Part shown: one piece after another, positions 14,148-17,143 of the stretch
How the letters are laid out: every line of letters begins with the position of its first letter
How positions within the stretch are numbered: position 1 is the first letter of the stretch
Source of the DNA: a virus
Lineage: Duplodnaviria > Heunggongvirae > Uroviricota > Caudoviricetes
IMG/VR virus record: IMGVR_UViG_2521172733_000017
Length of the DNA: 18,058 nt
Reading direction: 5' to 3' (one strand)
Program-made: the position numbers and the translations under genes
The notes under the pieces: generated by a model
The model's input: the letters and a program-made list of their open reading frames with translations, nothing else
Databases searched by the model: none
Told to the model about the DNA's origin: nothing

Positions 14148-14304
14148 AGCTCCAGCCCCTTGTATCCGTTAAATGATTCAGCAACAATCATCACCCACCA
14201 CGCGCGTAATCTCACCCCTGCGCCGTTCTCCCGCCACGGCGACAACAAAAAGCAGTAACCCCTTCCGCACGCACATGCGACCATGCCGCACAGGGAGGGA
14301 ACAG

Positions 14305-15413
14305 ATGACCGACACCACCATGCAATTGCTCAGCCAGGGCACTTACCCCGTGAAAATGCCGGATTTTGATATTCTCGCCGAGGGTAAAACGCTGTCCGGC
14401 GTGGCAGACCGCCTGATGAACCTGTCACTGACCGACAACCGGGGATTTGAGGCGGACCAGCTCACCATCACGCTGGATGATGCGGATGGTCAGTTGCAGC
14501 TACCGCCACGGGGCGCGCGCCTGACGGTTCTCATTGGCTGGAAAGGAGAACCGCTGACAGAAAAAGGCACTTACATTGTTGATGAAATCGCTCACGAAGG
14601 ACCGCCGGACAGGCTGACTGTTTCAGCCAGAAGCGCAGATTTTCGGGATGAATTTAACGTTAAACGTGAGGTGTCCTGGCATGATGTGACCGTTGAGCGC
14701 GTGGTATCTGCCATCGCTCATCGGTACGGTCTGAAACCGCAAATCAGCGAAATGCTGATGGATATCGAAATCGACCACGCCGACCAGACCGAAGAAAGCG
14801 ATATGTCCTTCCTTACGCGCATGGCGGAAATGCTGGGCGCAATCACCACGGTAAAAAGCGGCAATCTGTTATTCATCATGCCAGGTGGTGGCGTGAACGC
14901 ACAGGGCCAGCCGTTGCCCTCGTTCGCCATTACACGCAGCAGCGGCGATCGCCATCAGTTCCGTATTGCTGACCGCGAGGCGTATACGGGGGTACGCGCC
15001 TACTGGCTTGATCTTAATTACGGGAAAAAGAAAAAGTCAGCGTGAAACGCCGTAAACCACCAAAACCCAAAAAGGAGAAAAGCAGCAGCCGTGAAGGTGA
15101 TTATATGGAAGGCGCGGAAGGCAATGTGTTTGTGTTACGCAAGACTTATCAGAACGAGCAGGCAGCAAGACGCGCAGCGGCGGCAAAGTGGCAGCAGCTA
15201 CAACGCGGAGCCGCATCATTCTCCATCACGCTGGCATGTGGTCGTGCAGAACTCTACCCCGAAATGCATGGCACGGTAACAGGATTTAAAAGCGAGATTG
15301 ATAATCAGGACTGGATTATTGCAAAAGCCGAGCACACCATCGATAACAGCGGCTTTACCACGCAGCTTGAGCTTGAGGCAAAAATCTCGGAATGGATAGC
15401 AGAAACAGAGTGA
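14305..15413 (+). pseudogene. D: Tail protein D (P2 gpD, late control D family) split by a frameshift in an A-rich tract (segments 14305-15045 and 15042-15413)
   Basis: N-terminal segment carries LSLTDNRGFEADQL and SWHD motifs of gpD; the C-terminal part continues in the -1 frame (...GAASFSITLACGRAELYPE..., SGFTT) after the Lys-rich linker; frame break at gggaaaaagaaaaag (15022-15036); RBS GGGAGGG before ATG 14305. Confidence 0.75.
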
Positions 15414-15455: not shown

Positions 15456-15716
15456 ATGTTCCGTTGTCCGCTTTGTGGCGCATCTGCCCGTATCCGCACC
15501 AGTCGTCCTGAAAATGATTCAAACACCGTGCGGCAAAAGTATTACCAGTGTAACAACCTGGAATGCGGCGTATGCTTCTCAACACTGGAAGCTTTCCATA
15601 AATTCACATCAAAACACGCCTCCGGCGTTCACTCTTCAGAAGGTATCCCGTGGCATGAGCTGCCAGCTTCACACAGGGGAAACAATCAGATGAGTTTGCC
15701 TTTACCTCAGAATTAA
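15456..15716 (+). CDS. ogr: Ogr/Delta-family zinc-finger late-gene transcription activator
   Basis: 86 aa; MFRCPLCGASARIRTSR...YYQCNNLECGVCF carries the Cys-x2-Cys...Cys-x4-Cys finger and resembles P2 Ogr; AAGGGAGG RBS; positioned after D at the prophage right end as in P2. Confidence 0.85.
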   Translation: MFRCPLCGASARIRTSRPENDSNTVRQKYYQCNNLECGVCFSTLEAFHKFTSKHASGVHSSEGIPWHELPASHRGNNQMSLPLPQN

Positions 15717-15725
15717 CAGGCAGAA

Positions 15726-15754
15726 TTGCCGGAGTAACAAAAAAGCGATAGATT
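15726..15754 (+). promoter_or_regulatory. Candidate sigma70 promoter (TTGCCG, 17-bp spacer, TAGATT) for the hok-like transcript
   Basis: Good -35/-10 hexamers with 17-bp spacing about 150 nt upstream of the hok-like ORF; predicted transcript to the terminator at about 16168 would be roughly 400 nt, typical of hok mRNAs. Confidence 0.4.
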
Positions 15755-15907
15755 ACGCGCGGGTGCCTTTCGGCTGATGGTCGGAGGGAATACCCGAAGG
15801 CCAGATGTGGAAAGGCCCCGGAAAACATTTCTGTTTAACCGAGGCCCTAACATATCTACCTTAAGCAAGTGATAGGTTAGCGCCTCTCCAACAAAGGAGC
15901 AAGCGCT

Positions 15908-16048
15908 ATGTCGCAAAAATCGCTTACGGCCATCACGTTCTGCGTGACGGTAATCCTCATCATCTGGATGCTACACGGTTCGCTGTGTGAAATACGGATG
16001 AGCTTCTGGGGAGCGGAGTTTGCGGCGTTCTTACAGTGTAAGCAGTAA
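15908..16048 (+). CDS. Hok/Gef-family type I toxin-antitoxin toxin (small membrane peptide), HokA-like
   Basis: 46-aa ORF below the track's size cutoff: MSQKSLTAITFCVTVILIIWMLHGSLCEIRMSFWGAEFAAFLQCKQ; hydrophobic transmembrane helix followed by the SLCEIR...E-AAFL-C motif of Hok-family toxins (compare HokA ...DSLCELHIKQESYELAAFLACKLKE as recalled); AGGAG RBS 8 nt upstream. Confidence 0.65.
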   Translation: MSQKSLTAITFCVTVILIIWMLHGSLCEIRMSFWGAEFAAFLQCKQ

Positions 16049-16136
16049 GGAAACCGCGACGGGGGAGCAATCCCCCGTCAATCGGTTGCTAAGGTTGGCT
16101 GAAGTGGCACCCTATCTCACAGACATGAACAACAAA

Positions 16137-16168
16137 CCCGCAGCGTAAGAACTGCGGGTTTTCTTTTT
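16137..16168 (+). terminator. Rho-independent terminator (CCCGCAG-loop-CTGCGGG then TTTTCTTTTT) ending the hok-like transcript
   Basis: 7-bp GC-rich stem, 8-nt loop and T-rich tail on the + strand; an additional perfect 9-bp hairpin (GACGGGGGA-GCAA-TCCCCCGTC) lies at 16058-16079. Confidence 0.6.
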
Positions 16169-16251
16169 GGAACTATCACTAGCTAGTGTACCGTTAACGG
16201 CACATAATGCTCGCACAACAAACCTGTTAAAAGAGATTACTCAGCATTCTC

Positions 16252-16518
16252 CTACTTCCATTGCCGGATCATTTCATCGGTAACATCACCCTCATAACAT
16301 ACCACGTCATACCCTCCATTACGGCTATATGCACTGCGTCCACCACATCTACTACCATTCCTTGCATGATTATAAGGACACGCACAATTGCCTGGATAAG
16401 ATTCAATGGATTCTTTAATTATTTCTTTTTTGATCTGAGCATCAGACTTTCCTGTTGCTGCATATCCGCTAAAAGATACTAAACAAAGGCAGATTGCCAT
16501 TAATAAACCACATCGCAT
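16252..16518 (-). CDS. Small secreted Cys-containing protein of unknown function (orphan gene in an AT-rich islet)
   Basis: Starting at the internal ATG (16516-16518) gives 88 aa with a signal-peptide-like N-terminus MRCGLLMAICLCLVSFSGYAATG and a mature part with 4 Cys (CACPY...RCGGRSAYSRNGGYDVVCYEG); the track's 38-residue upstream extension is unlikely to be translated. Confidence 0.5.
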   Translation of the reverse strand: MRCGLLMAICLCLVSFSGYAATGKSDAQIKKEIIKESIESYPGNCACPYNHARNGSRCGGRSAYSRNGGYDVVCYEGDVTDEMIRQWK

Positions 16519-16736
16519 ACCGATACACTCTATTACTAACCAATCATAGTCCACATCATAAAATCGAGATGAGGAGTACAATACCTTTAACAAGAAGGTG
16601 TCATAACGATAATATGTCGTGCAATTCATCAAAAAAAAGATCTATATCAAAGAGATAGAACTCTTATCAGTGCTTCAGACATCGGCATTCGAGGCAGCAG
16701 AAAAACAGTAAATCTGACGAATTTGCCTTTTCCCAA

Positions 16737-16904
16737 GATGTTGTCAGATTAAAAAGATAGATTAGCGCAGGTACCTGTTGGTGGATTGCAGGAGGAAAAA
16801 TGAAGTCGAGTGGAAAAATCCCAGAAAAATTTTTGTTTAACAGAGGTCCTGGTTCACTATGCGAAATACGGAGGAGCTGCAGAAGAATTCTGCTTCATCC
16901 TTAG
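16737..16904 (+). pseudogene. Decayed paralogous copy of the hok-like locus (promoter-like region, leader and fused 34-codon ORF retaining ...GSLCEIR...)
   Basis: Segments homologous to 15726-15760, 15805-15850 and 15977-16005 of the intact locus are present in the same order but with an internal deletion of about 120-130 bp that removes the Hok transmembrane region; a GGAGG RBS precedes ATG 16800. Confidence 0.5.
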
Positions 16905-16985
16905 AGTTTAAACAGCACGTGCACTACCATTGTTTCTGCATATCGCCACACCATCGCCACTCAACCGCCATTGCACAAAATACAA

Positions 16986-17013
16986 ATACAAAAAAACCAC
17001 CCGAAGGTGGTTT
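16986..17013 (-). terminator. Rho-independent terminator downstream of tRNA-Leu (stem CCACC/GGTGG, then a T-run on the - strand)
   Basis: On the - strand: GAAACCACCTTCGGGTGGTTTTTTTGTATTT, a hairpin followed by 7-8 T residues, about 45 nt 3' of the tRNA-Leu end. Confidence 0.7.
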
Positions 17014-17056
17014 CACGACACTGCTTATTGCTTTGATTTTATTCTTATCTTTCCCA

Positions 17057-17143
17057 TGGTACCCGGAGCGGGACTTGAACCCGCACAGCGCGAACGCCGA
17101 GGGATTTTAAATCCCTTGTGTCTACCGATTCCACCATCCGGGC
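17057..17143 (-). tRNA. leuZ: tRNA-Leu (anticodon UAA), 87 nt with long variable arm
   Basis: Reverse complement matches E. coli leuZ as recalled (GCCCGGATGGTGGAATCGGTAGACACAAGGGATTTAAAATCCC...GGGTTCAAGTCCCGCTCCGGGTACCA); encoded CCA end. Confidence 0.9.

Follow-up and report, generated by a model that had tools for sequence, protein, structure and literature searches.

Behind ogr, the last recognisable P2-type gene of a viral sequence record, lies an open reading frame of 46 codons that reads as a Hok toxin. Does this gene belong to a type I toxin-antitoxin locus, and was it brought in by the phage or does it belong to the chromosome that received the phage? The stretch of DNA analysed here, 18,058 nucleotides from IMG/VR record IMGVR_UViG_2521172733_000017, is referred to as the window, and positions are counted from its first letter. 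An initial annotation had proposed a Hok/Gef-family locus at this place and asked whether it is phage cargo or the chromosomal integration target. We consider the locus very probably a hok/sok-type type I toxin-antitoxin cassette, carried as accessory cargo by a P2-like prophage.

The hok gene and its peptide

The hok coding sequence occupies positions 15908–16048 of the plus strand, with the ATG at 15908 and the stop codon at 16046–16048, and encodes the 46-residue peptide MSQKSLTAITFCVTVILIIWMLHGSLCEIRMSFWGAEFAAFLQCKQ. The Pfam family PF01848 (HOK_GEF) matches residues 7–44 over profile positions 5–42 of 42 (30.1 bits, E 3.7e-7; gathering cut-off 22), which bears out the assignment to the Hok family made in the initial annotation. 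PHROG 251 matches the peptide as well (E 2.5e-23). As predicted for a membrane peptide with the Hok C-terminal motif, an N-terminal hydrophobic helix at about residues 6–23 is followed by the conserved LCE...E...C tail. The Hok logo, built from 1264 peptides, has seven residues conserved at more than 80% (M1, C16, T18, L30, C31, E32 and E41). All seven are found in the window peptide, as M1, C12, T14, L26, C27, E28 and E37, with identical spacings (+2, +12, +1, +1 and +9), and C44 corresponds to logo position 48. Two narrower NCBIfam models score below their cut-offs, namely the HokA equivalog NF007290 (35.8 bits versus 89) and the Hok family subfamily NF007279 (23.6 bits versus 73). The peptide is thus neither HokA nor a member of NF007279, and the general Pfam family alone applies.

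The 46-codon gene genuinely belongs to the Hok/Gef type I toxins, a well-known family that kills by way of the membrane. Of the best 80 IMG/VR loci, 63 have the ORF intact and identical, the dN/dS of the coding sequence against diverged relatives is 0.12–0.35, and the peptide is under purifying selection. The gene had been taken for unannotated, which turned out to be wrong. RefSeq names the exact coding sequence "Hok/Gef family protein" (WP_000078920.1; E. coli 15A and 55989), the record of phage P88 annotates the gene as hok/gef family, and the Hok catalogue lists the identical peptide in cluster 72, as entry 1628 (Escalera-Maurer et al., bioRxiv 10.1101/2025.08.07.668861).

Two cluster-72 peptides of that catalogue, 72_1621 (V15A, one residue off the window peptide) and 72_1589, which is of the Stx2-phage type, were cloned and reported toxic on induction; this result comes from a preprint and from overexpression of the coding sequence only, and the closer variant differs from the window peptide by one residue (bioRxiv 10.1101/2025.08.07.668861). 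Neither is among the 3 of 45 constructs that were non-toxic. The same work reports that hok is enriched in prophages. It treats coding sequences only and states that Mok, Sok and the mRNA ends were left unanalysed, and it gives no description of the position behind ogr or of the att structure. The initial annotation identified the element correctly, though it is an ordinary one that was known before. With the gene already in RefSeq and the prophage enrichment already reported, the finding matters little as such; it illustrates that a sequence-only reading can spot a 46-codon type I toxin together with its RNA architecture.

Position of the cassette in the prophage

The phage gene immediately 5' of the cassette is the late-gene activator ogr (15456–15716, plus strand; Pfam Ogr_Delta, E 5e-14). 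Among the best 80 viral loci in IMG/VR, an ogr homologue lies within 600 nt upstream of hok in 79, and in 77 it ends 193–195 nt before hok. On the other side of the cassette, a small Cys-rich ORF with a hydrophobic N-terminus (16252–16518, minus strand) is a hypothetical protein in RefSeq and matches phrog_27544 (E 2.9e-54); we regard it as prophage cargo, and P88 has an unrelated ORF at this place. Pairwise alignment to 15715–16172 further revealed a decayed second hok locus at 16740–16920 on the plus strand, with an ORF fragment ...FLFNRGPGSLCEIR... This copy keeps the promoter −10 and the leader, and a 128-bp internal deletion took the sok promoter, the ribosome-binding site, the start codon and the membrane helix.

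The right end of the prophage is marked by a 124-bp attR core at 16988–17111, which takes in the 3'-terminal 55 nt of tRNA-Leu together with the leuZ terminator. In E. coli 55989, this sequence forms a perfect direct repeat (attL/attR) at both ends of the same prophage, whereas the empty yecA-leuZ site of strain IAI1 holds a single 124-bp copy adjoining yecA. Integration took place in the 3' half of tRNA-Leu (leuZ). Since the empty site joins yecA directly to the att sequence, everything from ogr to 16987 is insert, and the att repeat places the hok cassette about 820 bp inside the prophage, not directly beyond its end as originally thought. The proposed comparison with a prophage-free site thus settles the question of cargo or target in favour of cargo, as the IAI1 site lacks the locus. 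By these sequence comparisons, the hok cassette is internal cargo (a moron) of a P2-like prophage, located between ogr and the att site. Two other candidate empty sites were rejected: the O157:H7 site is a degraded P2-like prophage with IS30, and strain YJ3 is likewise left with a remnant, in which IS elements and defence genes occur.

Could the locus nevertheless be chromosomal, either as the phage integration target or as a host gene just outside the prophage? Its place behind the last P2-type gene would fit, and so would the att-proximal arm (16165–17000), which has no match among sequenced phages in a collection of 50,697 records, so that the cargo status of this arm rests on the att repeat and the PHROG match. 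O157:H7 strains also retain 16186–17060 without the hok cassette, but there the retained segment belongs to the IS30-interrupted degraded prophage and not to an empty site. Against a chromosomal origin, the K-12-like empty sites, as that of IAI1, join yecA to the att sequence, and in the majority of the 5,425 matching E. coli genomes the shared part is confined to 16988–17060. Moreover, the P88 genome record contains the cassette, and the ORF at 16252–16518 matches a phage protein family (E 3e-54). As far as sequence comparison can refute it, the chromosomal origin is refuted, and we give it hardly any credence.

Predicted transcription signals and fold of the hok mRNA

The hok promoter is located at 15726–15754 on the plus strand, with the −35 hexamer TTGCCG (15726–15731), a 17-nt spacer and the −10 hexamer TAGATT (15749–15754). 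The hexamers stand where a sigma70 promoter had been proposed and agree with the consensus at 8 of 12 positions, but this is below the 9/12 threshold of our consensus promoter scan, which reported neither the hok nor the sok promoter; a relaxed scan recovered the hok promoter only. Across the subfamily the −10 reads TAGATT or TAGAAT, and its distance to the mRNA 5' end is the same as in the R1-type locus (TATGAT + 6 nt + GGCGCUUGAGG). We place the predicted +1 at G15761 because of the −10 position and because the match to the Rfam hok-leader model starts at the same nucleotide. From there to the intrinsic terminator at 16134–16168 (plus strand; stem 16134–16161, T run to 16168), the predicted full-length hok mRNA (15761–16168, plus strand) is 408 nt long, in agreement with the earlier estimate of about 400 nt. 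The ribosome-binding site AAGGAG lies at 15894–15899, 8 nt 5' of the ATG. A terminator scan found no terminator between ogr and the hok promoter.

The Rfam model RF01794 matches 15761–15918 in the hok sense over its full length (1–157), from the predicted +1 to the hok ATG. The score is 47.9 bits (gathering score 59; E 4e-9), and the controls reach 118 bits for hokC and 87 bits for the R1-type locus. The register at the window locus is the same as in K-12 hokC and R1-type hok.

In both the MFE fold and the RNAalifold consensus, a tac-like 5' element, GGGUGCCUUUCGGCU (15761–15775), pairs with an fbi-like fold-back element, GGCUGAAGUGGCACCC (16097–16112), which is kept in 10/10 loci; these and the following elements lie on the plus strand. 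The helix comprises nine consensus pairs (RNAalifold columns 10–18 with 366–374; 97.8% of cells paired in 10 diverse loci). It reads GGGUGCC/GGCACCC in the window locus and GGCGCUU/AAGCGCC at the same R1-type positions. Within the subfamily, most of the nine pairs do not vary, and the covariation hence derives from the R1-type comparison. A second long-range helix joins an upstream box, CCUUAAGC (15859–15866), to a downstream box, GCUAAGG (16088–16094), in the full-length RNA (RNAalifold columns 112–118 with 348–354; two compensatory pairs; 93% of cells paired). The upstream box lies inside the target of the predicted Sok 5' tail.

The hok ribosome-binding site is sequestered in a hairpin at 15879–15907 (−14.2 kcal/mol folded alone; conserved helices 6 and 7), which is seen in the full-length and truncated folds. 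A conserved stem-loop follows the gene at 16058–16079, with a perfect 9-bp stem (16058–16066 with 16071–16079); the initial annotation had already recognised both this hairpin and the terminator. The stem-loop carries three compensatory pairs, one of which is GC in five and CG in five of the ten sequences. By analogy with R1 (PMC9841398), it is likely to be the protective 3' end of the processed mRNA.

Taken over the 10 diverse loci, the consensus structure has 96% of its cells paired and 11 pairs with compensatory change; with slid partners, the figures fall to 38–48% and 1–3. The long-range and hairpin helices are kept with compensatory changes among relatives in E. coli, E. albertii, Salmonella and Klebsiella. 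The transcript unit has the architecture of a hok mRNA, with tac/fbi fold-back, closed ribosome-binding-site hairpin, 3' stem-loop and terminator, which upholds the likeness claimed at the outset. In the modelled 3'-truncated mRNA, the hairpin stays closed and the ribosome-binding site is about 33% unpaired in both forms, so the model does not reproduce the activation step; the target of the Sok tail opens only from 21% to 41% unpaired.

A predicted Sok-like antisense RNA

Alignment with sokC predicts a Sok-like antisense RNA of about 56–63 nt at 15805–15867 on the minus strand. The curated ends of K-12 sokC map to window positions 15860 (5') and 15805 (3'). The predicted RNA folds into a free, single-stranded 5' tail followed by a GC-rich hairpin, and its sequence is laid out as in SokC: the two share the GGCCUCGG...CGGGGC hairpin, and then a U-rich tail. 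A putative sok promoter is located at 15874–15902 on the minus strand, with −35 TTGCTC (sense 15897–15902), a 17-nt spacer and −10 TAACCT (sense 15874–15879); its −35 overlaps the hok ribosome-binding site. The position and spacing equal those of the R1-type promoter (TTGCGC-17-TATCCT) and of the stretch preceding the annotated 5' end of sokC (TTGACC-17-CACTCT). The promoter is kept in 13 subfamily loci, where the −10 is TAACCT or TATCCT; this conservation is confounded by the overlap with the ribosome-binding-site hairpin. The search for a Sok-like antisense RNA, suggested in the initial annotation, thus yielded hexamers and RNA ends in homologous positions, but the promoter agrees with the consensus at only 6 of 12 positions and was missed by both scans. 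From positional homology only, we infer that a Sok-like antisense RNA is encoded at the window locus.

Absence of a mok frame

A short leader ORF upstream of hok had been noted as part of the hok-like architecture. The ORF exists (15805–15864, 19 codons, preceded by GAAGG at 15796–15800), but a mok-like role does not stand: the Stx2-phage relative carries a frameshift in this ORF, and the relatives from Salmonella and Klebsiella lack it. Neither this ORF nor the one at 15777–15872 is conserved, which rules out both as mok analogues. None of 13 subfamily loci, which we examined in three genera, has a mok frame overlapping into hok: all 13 carry an in-frame stop at −30 (or −9) that is not followed by a start codon, and in the window locus this is a TAG 30 nt 5' of the hok ATG. 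The R1-type and hokC controls, in contrast, have an in-frame ATG at −57. Since mok is absent from all 13 loci in three genera, its absence is a trait of the subfamily and not decay. In R1, the mok frame is required for hok translation (PMC9841398), and without it the R1 mechanism is not transferable unchanged.

The regulatory consequence is a matter of conjecture. Cluster 72, with the window locus and its relatives in phages of E. coli, Salmonella and Klebsiella, might be a naturally mok-less branch of hok/sok, in which direct initiation at the hairpin-sequestered ribosome-binding site replaces translational coupling and the Sok-like RNA acts at a distance; we hold this possible but somewhat doubtful. 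We also conjecture that such a branch is undescribed, as a search of our literature library brought up nothing specific about hok carried by P2-like phages or about a hok locus lacking mok. At a mok-less locus, the Sok-like RNA could occupy an unstructured ribosome standby region (about 15846–15878) 5' of the hairpin, or could work through RNase III-driven decay alone. The standby site itself is hypothetical, and a comparable arrangement is known from tisB/istR-1. In this type I system, the toxin mRNA has a structured ribosome-binding site, and the antisense RNA binds well upstream, at the ribosome standby region, and induces RNase III cleavage. To our knowledge, tisB/istR-1 has no sequence or family relationship to the window locus, and we compare the way of working only. 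The mok-less subfamily offers a natural test case for the control of hok mRNA without translational coupling.

Comparison with known hok/sok systems

The locus resembles hok/sok (parB) of plasmid R1 in its small membrane toxin with the conserved Cys/Thr...LCE...E motif, in its roughly 400-nt mRNA, whose tac and fbi elements pair at corresponding positions, and in the order of 3' stem-loop, fbi and terminator. In both, the antisense promoter, which is putative at the window locus, has its −35 next to the hok ribosome-binding site and a spacer of 17 nt. On the other hand, the toxins share 39% identity over 31 residues, and R1 Hok has 52 residues against 46 here. The R1 locus is plasmid-borne and has mok, whereas the window locus is prophage-borne and lacks a mok frame; the Rfam leader score is also lower at the window locus (47.9 versus 87). 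The leader of hokC/sokC (gef) of E. coli K-12 aligns over its whole length, and sokC maps onto the predicted antisense RNA. However, mokC is an in-frame 19-codon extension, the hokC locus is chromosomal, and its peptide belongs to cluster 38.

Another prophage-carried type I system of the hok type is hokW-sokW of the Stx2 prophage Sp5 (Takada et al. 2021, PMC8621323). [quoted passage not shown] In the literature that we found, no other prophage hok has had its role tested. HokW differs from the window peptide in sequence (MKQQKAM...DYESEK) and length (51 residues); it falls in cluster 35 with HokD (entry 35_712), and its phage is lambdoid, not P2-like. The HokW primers and the cluster 35 assignment rule out that the window locus is hokW-sokW; the name "MokW-like" is a PHROG label only. 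The DNA matches of 83.6% in Stx2 phages represent a separate cluster-72 locus and not hokW.

Proposed working, role and alternatives

By analogy with R1 (PMC9841398), the full-length hok mRNA would be stable and inert. Slow 3' trimming to the stem-loop at 16058–16079 would remove the fold-back elements and expose the leader, with which the short, unstable antisense RNA (about 15867 to 15805, minus strand) would pair, leading to RNase III cleavage. Once the supply of antisense RNA stops, the toxin would be made and the inner membrane depolarised. As there is no overlapping mok, Hok must be translated from its own well-spaced ribosome-binding site; in place of translational coupling, the antisense RNA would exert its effect upstream of this site, at a distance of about 27 nt or more. 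The cassette may serve to stabilise the prophage by killing cells that lose it, to aid lysis after induction, or to exclude other phages; we weakly favour the first role.

Two other explanations accept the gene as hok and question its working. According to one, the locus is an inactive relic that is recognisable but unable to kill, as has been proposed for the chromosomal hok of laboratory E. coli; the introduction of the preprint cites earlier work suggesting that chromosomal hok/sok is inactive (bioRxiv 10.1101/2025.08.07.668861). The decayed hok copy 700 bp away in the same prophage arm, the missing mok frame that R1 needs for translation and the modelled hairpin that stays closed all fit a relic. 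Yet a relic would hardly keep the ORF intact and identical in so many loci, at the low dN/dS given above, nor its promoter, fold-back elements, ribosome-binding site and terminator with compensatory changes. The lack of mok is common to 13 loci in three genera, and two cluster-72 peptides are reported toxic, so we judge the relic very unlikely. According to the other, the toxin is real and there is no Sok-type RNA: mRNA folding, and possibly late readthrough from ogr, would control a lysis accessory that is not a toxin-antitoxin pair. This would suit the weak consensus of the antisense promoter (6/12), the gap between ogr and the hok promoter with no terminator found, and the aid to lysis given by the prophage gene hokW (PMC8621323). 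Without mok, moreover, it is hard to see how translation would be blocked by an antisense RNA that ends 27 nt 5' of the ribosome-binding site. However, the hexamers, their spacing of 17 nt and the shape of the predicted RNA, a hairpin plus a tail, match the R1-type locus and sokC position for position, and the −10 varies between TAACCT and TATCCT only, which keeps the key T-A...T positions. A conserved long-range helix also masks the target of the Sok tail, and such masking is sensible only if something binds there. We therefore regard a toxin without Sok as rather unlikely and retain the hok/sok-type cassette as our reading.

Spread of the cassette among phages

Comparison with other phages delimits the cassette. 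The isolated phage P88, for which a complete genome record exists, is 99.1% identical over 15700–16168 and then diverges, and five other P2-like phages also carry the cassette. The homology with P88 and with 21 IMG/VR loci among the best 80 ends at 16160–16170; counted over the same 80, it breaks at 16110–16170 in 37 loci and at 15710–15740 in three. The cassette is a discrete, self-contained module from promoter to terminator (about 15726–16168). Its core (15740–16112) is also found in lambdoid Stx2 phages, with 83.6% identity. Its presence after ogr in many P2-like phages and its recurrence in lambdoid Stx2 phages indicate that it is traded between unrelated phage types. Phage P88 and the prophage of E. 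coli 55989 are systems in which the cassette could be put to the test.

Identity of the hok gene

We show that the cassette downstream of ogr holds a Hok-family gene under selection, has a hok-type mRNA architecture and is carried as prophage cargo. On the + strand, the region read and the ORF listing reveal a 46-codon hok ORF (15908–16048) encoding MSQKSLTAITFCVTVILIIWMLHGSLCEIRMSFWGAEFAAFLQCKQ, and the ribosome-binding site AAGGAG (15894–15899) has the ATG 8 nt downstream. Sequence reading also locates a promoter-like pair, TTGCCG (15726–15731) and TAGATT (15749–15754) with a 17-nt spacing, and a perfect 9-bp hairpin (16058–16079), and the ORF listing gives a 19-codon leader ORF (15805–15864). 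The terminator has its stem at 16134–16161 and a T run to 16168. The promoter pair matches 8 of 12 consensus positions in a scan and is absent from the output of a consensus promoter tool. All these elements had been listed in the initial annotation, whose description is accurate.

The proposed Hok/Gef membership is confirmed by profile searches, with 30.1 bits against Pfam Hok/Gef (gathering score 22) and E 2.5e-23 against PHROG 251. Against the narrower NCBIfam models for HokA and the Hok subfamily, the peptide stays short of the cut-offs; it shares 39% identity with R1 Hok across the conserved core. The seven residues conserved in >80% of known Hok peptides (published logo) are all present with identical spacing. 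In a database search, relatives fell into 68 clusters (90% identity) drawn from E. coli, Shigella, Salmonella and Klebsiella; all those named by a source are called "Hok/Gef family protein". The dN/dS against diverged relatives is 0.12–0.35, and therefore the peptide is under selection.

The gene had been regarded as unannotated, which does not hold: it is an already annotated and catalogued element. The same CDS is WP_000078920.1 in RefSeq, annotated in E. coli 15A and 55989, the phage P88 record labels the same gene hok/gef family, and the 2025–26 catalogue (Escalera-Maurer et al., bioRxiv 10.1101/2025.08.07.668861) lists the identical peptide as entry 1628 of cluster 72. Two cluster-72 representatives were cloned in that study, one of them a single residue away from the peptide here, and both are absent from the three of 45 constructs that were non-toxic; Mok and Sok, as the catalogue itself states, lay outside its analysis (bioRxiv 10.1101/2025.08.07.668861).

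We rejected hokW-sokW of prophage Sp5 as the identity of the locus, to which 83.6% DNA matches in Stx2 phages and a "MokW-like" label had pointed. By published primers, HokW reads MKQQKAM...DYESEK (PMC8621323). It falls in cluster 35 with HokD, whereas the locus here belongs to cluster 72. These are different hok genes, and the Sp5 results bear on this locus by analogy only.

Position within the prophage

Among the 5,425 matching E. coli genomes, most have only 16988–17060 in common with the window. In E. coli 55989, the same element lies between yecA and leuZ with the integrase at its far end, and a perfect 124-bp repeat is common to both junctions. IAI1 contains a single copy of the 124-bp sequence at an uninterrupted yecA-leuZ site. 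In the window, this att core spans 16988–17111 and consists of the 3′-terminal 55 nt of tRNA-Leu plus the leuZ terminator. The hok cassette, an ORF at 16252–16518 and a decayed hok copy therefore lie inside the prophage, not beyond its end as initially placed. Between cargo and chromosomal integration target, the repeat at both junctions and the empty site of IAI1 identify the hok cassette as prophage cargo.

O157:H7 and YJ3 were discarded as empty sites, as both configurations are degraded prophages. At the same leuZ-yecA site of E. coli YJ3 (locus L006:2662–16535), ogr, hok and the att arm are the only prophage survivors. In place of the remainder stand IS elements, a group II intron and several defence-type genes in one block (TIR-domain protein, type I restriction enzyme subunit, DUF262 protein and PD-(D/E)XK nuclease).

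Predicted structure of the hok mRNA

Rfam RF01794 matches 15761–15918 on the + strand with 47.9 bits (E 4e-9; gathering score 59). Controls establish it as a model of the hok-sense leader: it hits the K-12 hokC strand, opposite annotated sokC (118 bits), and the R1-type locus (87 bits). In the MFE fold of 15761–16168, the 5′ end (15761–15775) pairs with 16097–16112. This predicted pairing corresponds to the tac/fbi fold-back, a defining trait of hok mRNAs (PMC9841398), and the R1-type locus carries a co-varying pair, GGCGCUU/AAGCGCC, at the equivalent positions.

We further aligned ten diverse subfamily loci (E. coli, Stx2 phage, E. albertii, Salmonella, Klebsiella) and folded them with RNAalifold. 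The tac/fbi stem and the terminator were recovered, together with a hairpin covering the hok ribosome-binding site, a second long-range helix of 15859–15866 with 16088–16094 (two compensatory pairs) and the 16058–16079 stem-loop (three compensatory pairs, one being GC in five loci and CG in five). With the caveat that the structure was derived from the same ten-locus alignment, 96% of cells are paired versus 38–48% with slid partners, and 11 pairs show double changes versus 1–3 in slid controls. Both folds thus bear out the hok-mRNA architecture suggested earlier. In modelled 3′-truncated RNAs, the ribosome-binding-site hairpin (-14.2 kcal/mol) remains closed.

We also notice a 12-bp helix between 15910–15923, the codons right after the hok start (GUCGCAAAAAUCGC), and 16013–16026, the AEFAAF codons. 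It is 100% paired in 10/10 loci, which with these data is indistinguishable from protein-level conservation.

Leader, mok and predicted antisense RNA

In R1, hok translation requires translation of the overlapping mok frame (PMC9841398). In the R1-type and hokC controls, the hok frame stays open from an in-frame ATG 57 nt upstream. No mok frame exists in any of the 13 subfamily loci examined, where a stop at -30 (or -9) closes the hok frame and is followed by no start codon, and nothing is conserved in the other two frames upstream of hok in these loci. The GAGG at which R1 mok is initiated has been kept in this subfamily, but inside a hairpin common to the leader and the predicted antisense RNA. 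The leader ORF of the initial annotation is present, but it is not conserved: its start ATG is kept in E. coli-type sequences only, the ORF carries a frameshift in the Stx2-phage relative, and those from Salmonella and Klebsiella lack it. The consistent lack of mok in the cluster-72 subfamily appears to be the sole mildly new point.

On the - strand, a putative sok promoter is placed by positional match, with TTGCTC (sense 15897–15902) and TAACCT (sense 15874–15879) separated by 17 nt. The R1-type locus has TTGCGC-17-TATCCT at these positions, and the stretch that precedes the annotated 5′ end of K-12 sokC matches the hexamers as well. Subfamily members keep the hexamers, the -10 being either TAACCT or TATCCT. 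In an alignment, the curated sokC ends map to 15860 and 15805. Like SokC, the predicted RNA combines a GC-rich hairpin with an unpaired 5′ tail. The Sok-like antisense RNA raised by the initial annotation is thus favoured by position, but the hexamers match only 6/12 consensus positions. Because of this low match and their overlap with the ribosome-binding-site hairpin, we infer a Sok-like antitoxin rather than assert one.

Following R1, the full-length hok mRNA would be inert and would undergo 3′ processing; the antisense RNA would lead to hok mRNA decay, and its exhaustion would result in membrane killing by Hok. Prophage stabilisation, a lysis aid (as for hokW) and exclusion of other phages are candidate roles of the cassette. 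The catalogue authors view prophage hok function as unstudied (bioRxiv 10.1101/2025.08.07.668861).

Distribution and neighbouring features

The cassette is found in P88 and five other P2-like phages at 93–99% identity. P88 diverges right after the terminator, and its downstream ORF is unrelated. Among the best 80 loci of 311 IMG/VR viral contigs encoding a relative, ogr lies upstream on the same strand in 79, ending 193–195 nt before hok in 77. Homology ends at 16160–16170 in 21 of these 80 and at 16110–16120 in 16, and is continuous to the att core in 19. The core (15740–16112) also occurs in lambdoid Stx2 phages. Salmonella subfamily loci follow ogr in a different P2-like prophage, stand at the end of a lambdoid prophage or form triple tandem arrays.

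In two such Salmonella enterica loci (L101:2501–3987 and L102:2501–3643), three complete cluster-72 hok loci stand in tandem at distances of 500–700 bp, and every one of them has a promoter, leader and terminator of its own. Contigs of assemblies labelled Planococcaceae MAG, Vagococcus sp. and Xanthomonas pisi (L010, L011 and L014) encode this hok at 100%, 100% and 74% identity, most likely through enterobacterial contamination of those assemblies.

The decayed hok locus (16740–16920, + strand) occupies the same prophage arm and adjoins the attR core. It retains the GATAGATTA -10 and a partly conserved leader. A 128-bp internal deletion, equivalent to 15849–15976, fuses ...FLFNRGP to GSLCEIR; lost with it are the sok promoter, the ribosome-binding site, the start codon and the membrane helix. 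The - strand ORF at 16252–16518 separates the two hok copies and encodes a small Cys-rich product with a hydrophobic N-terminus. It matches phrog_27544 (E 2.9e-54; function unknown) and, more weakly, a 'membrane associated protein' moron family; RefSeq calls it "hypothetical", and it is unrelated to the same-position ORF of P88.

Upstream, the P2-type tail gene D (14173–15413) has five A at 15031–15035, versus six in 15A and 55989 (GAAAAAG versus GAAAAAAG). This difference splits it into ORFs 14173–15045 and 15042–15413, and is either a real frameshift that leaves the prophage defective or an error in sequencing the homopolymer. Past the window end, pgsA of strain 15A (E. coli O111:H21; L001:4916–6361) is followed, instead of by uvrC, by a truncated gene for a P2-type replication endonuclease and by parM, an arrangement that points to chromosomal rearrangement between a pair of P2-like prophages.
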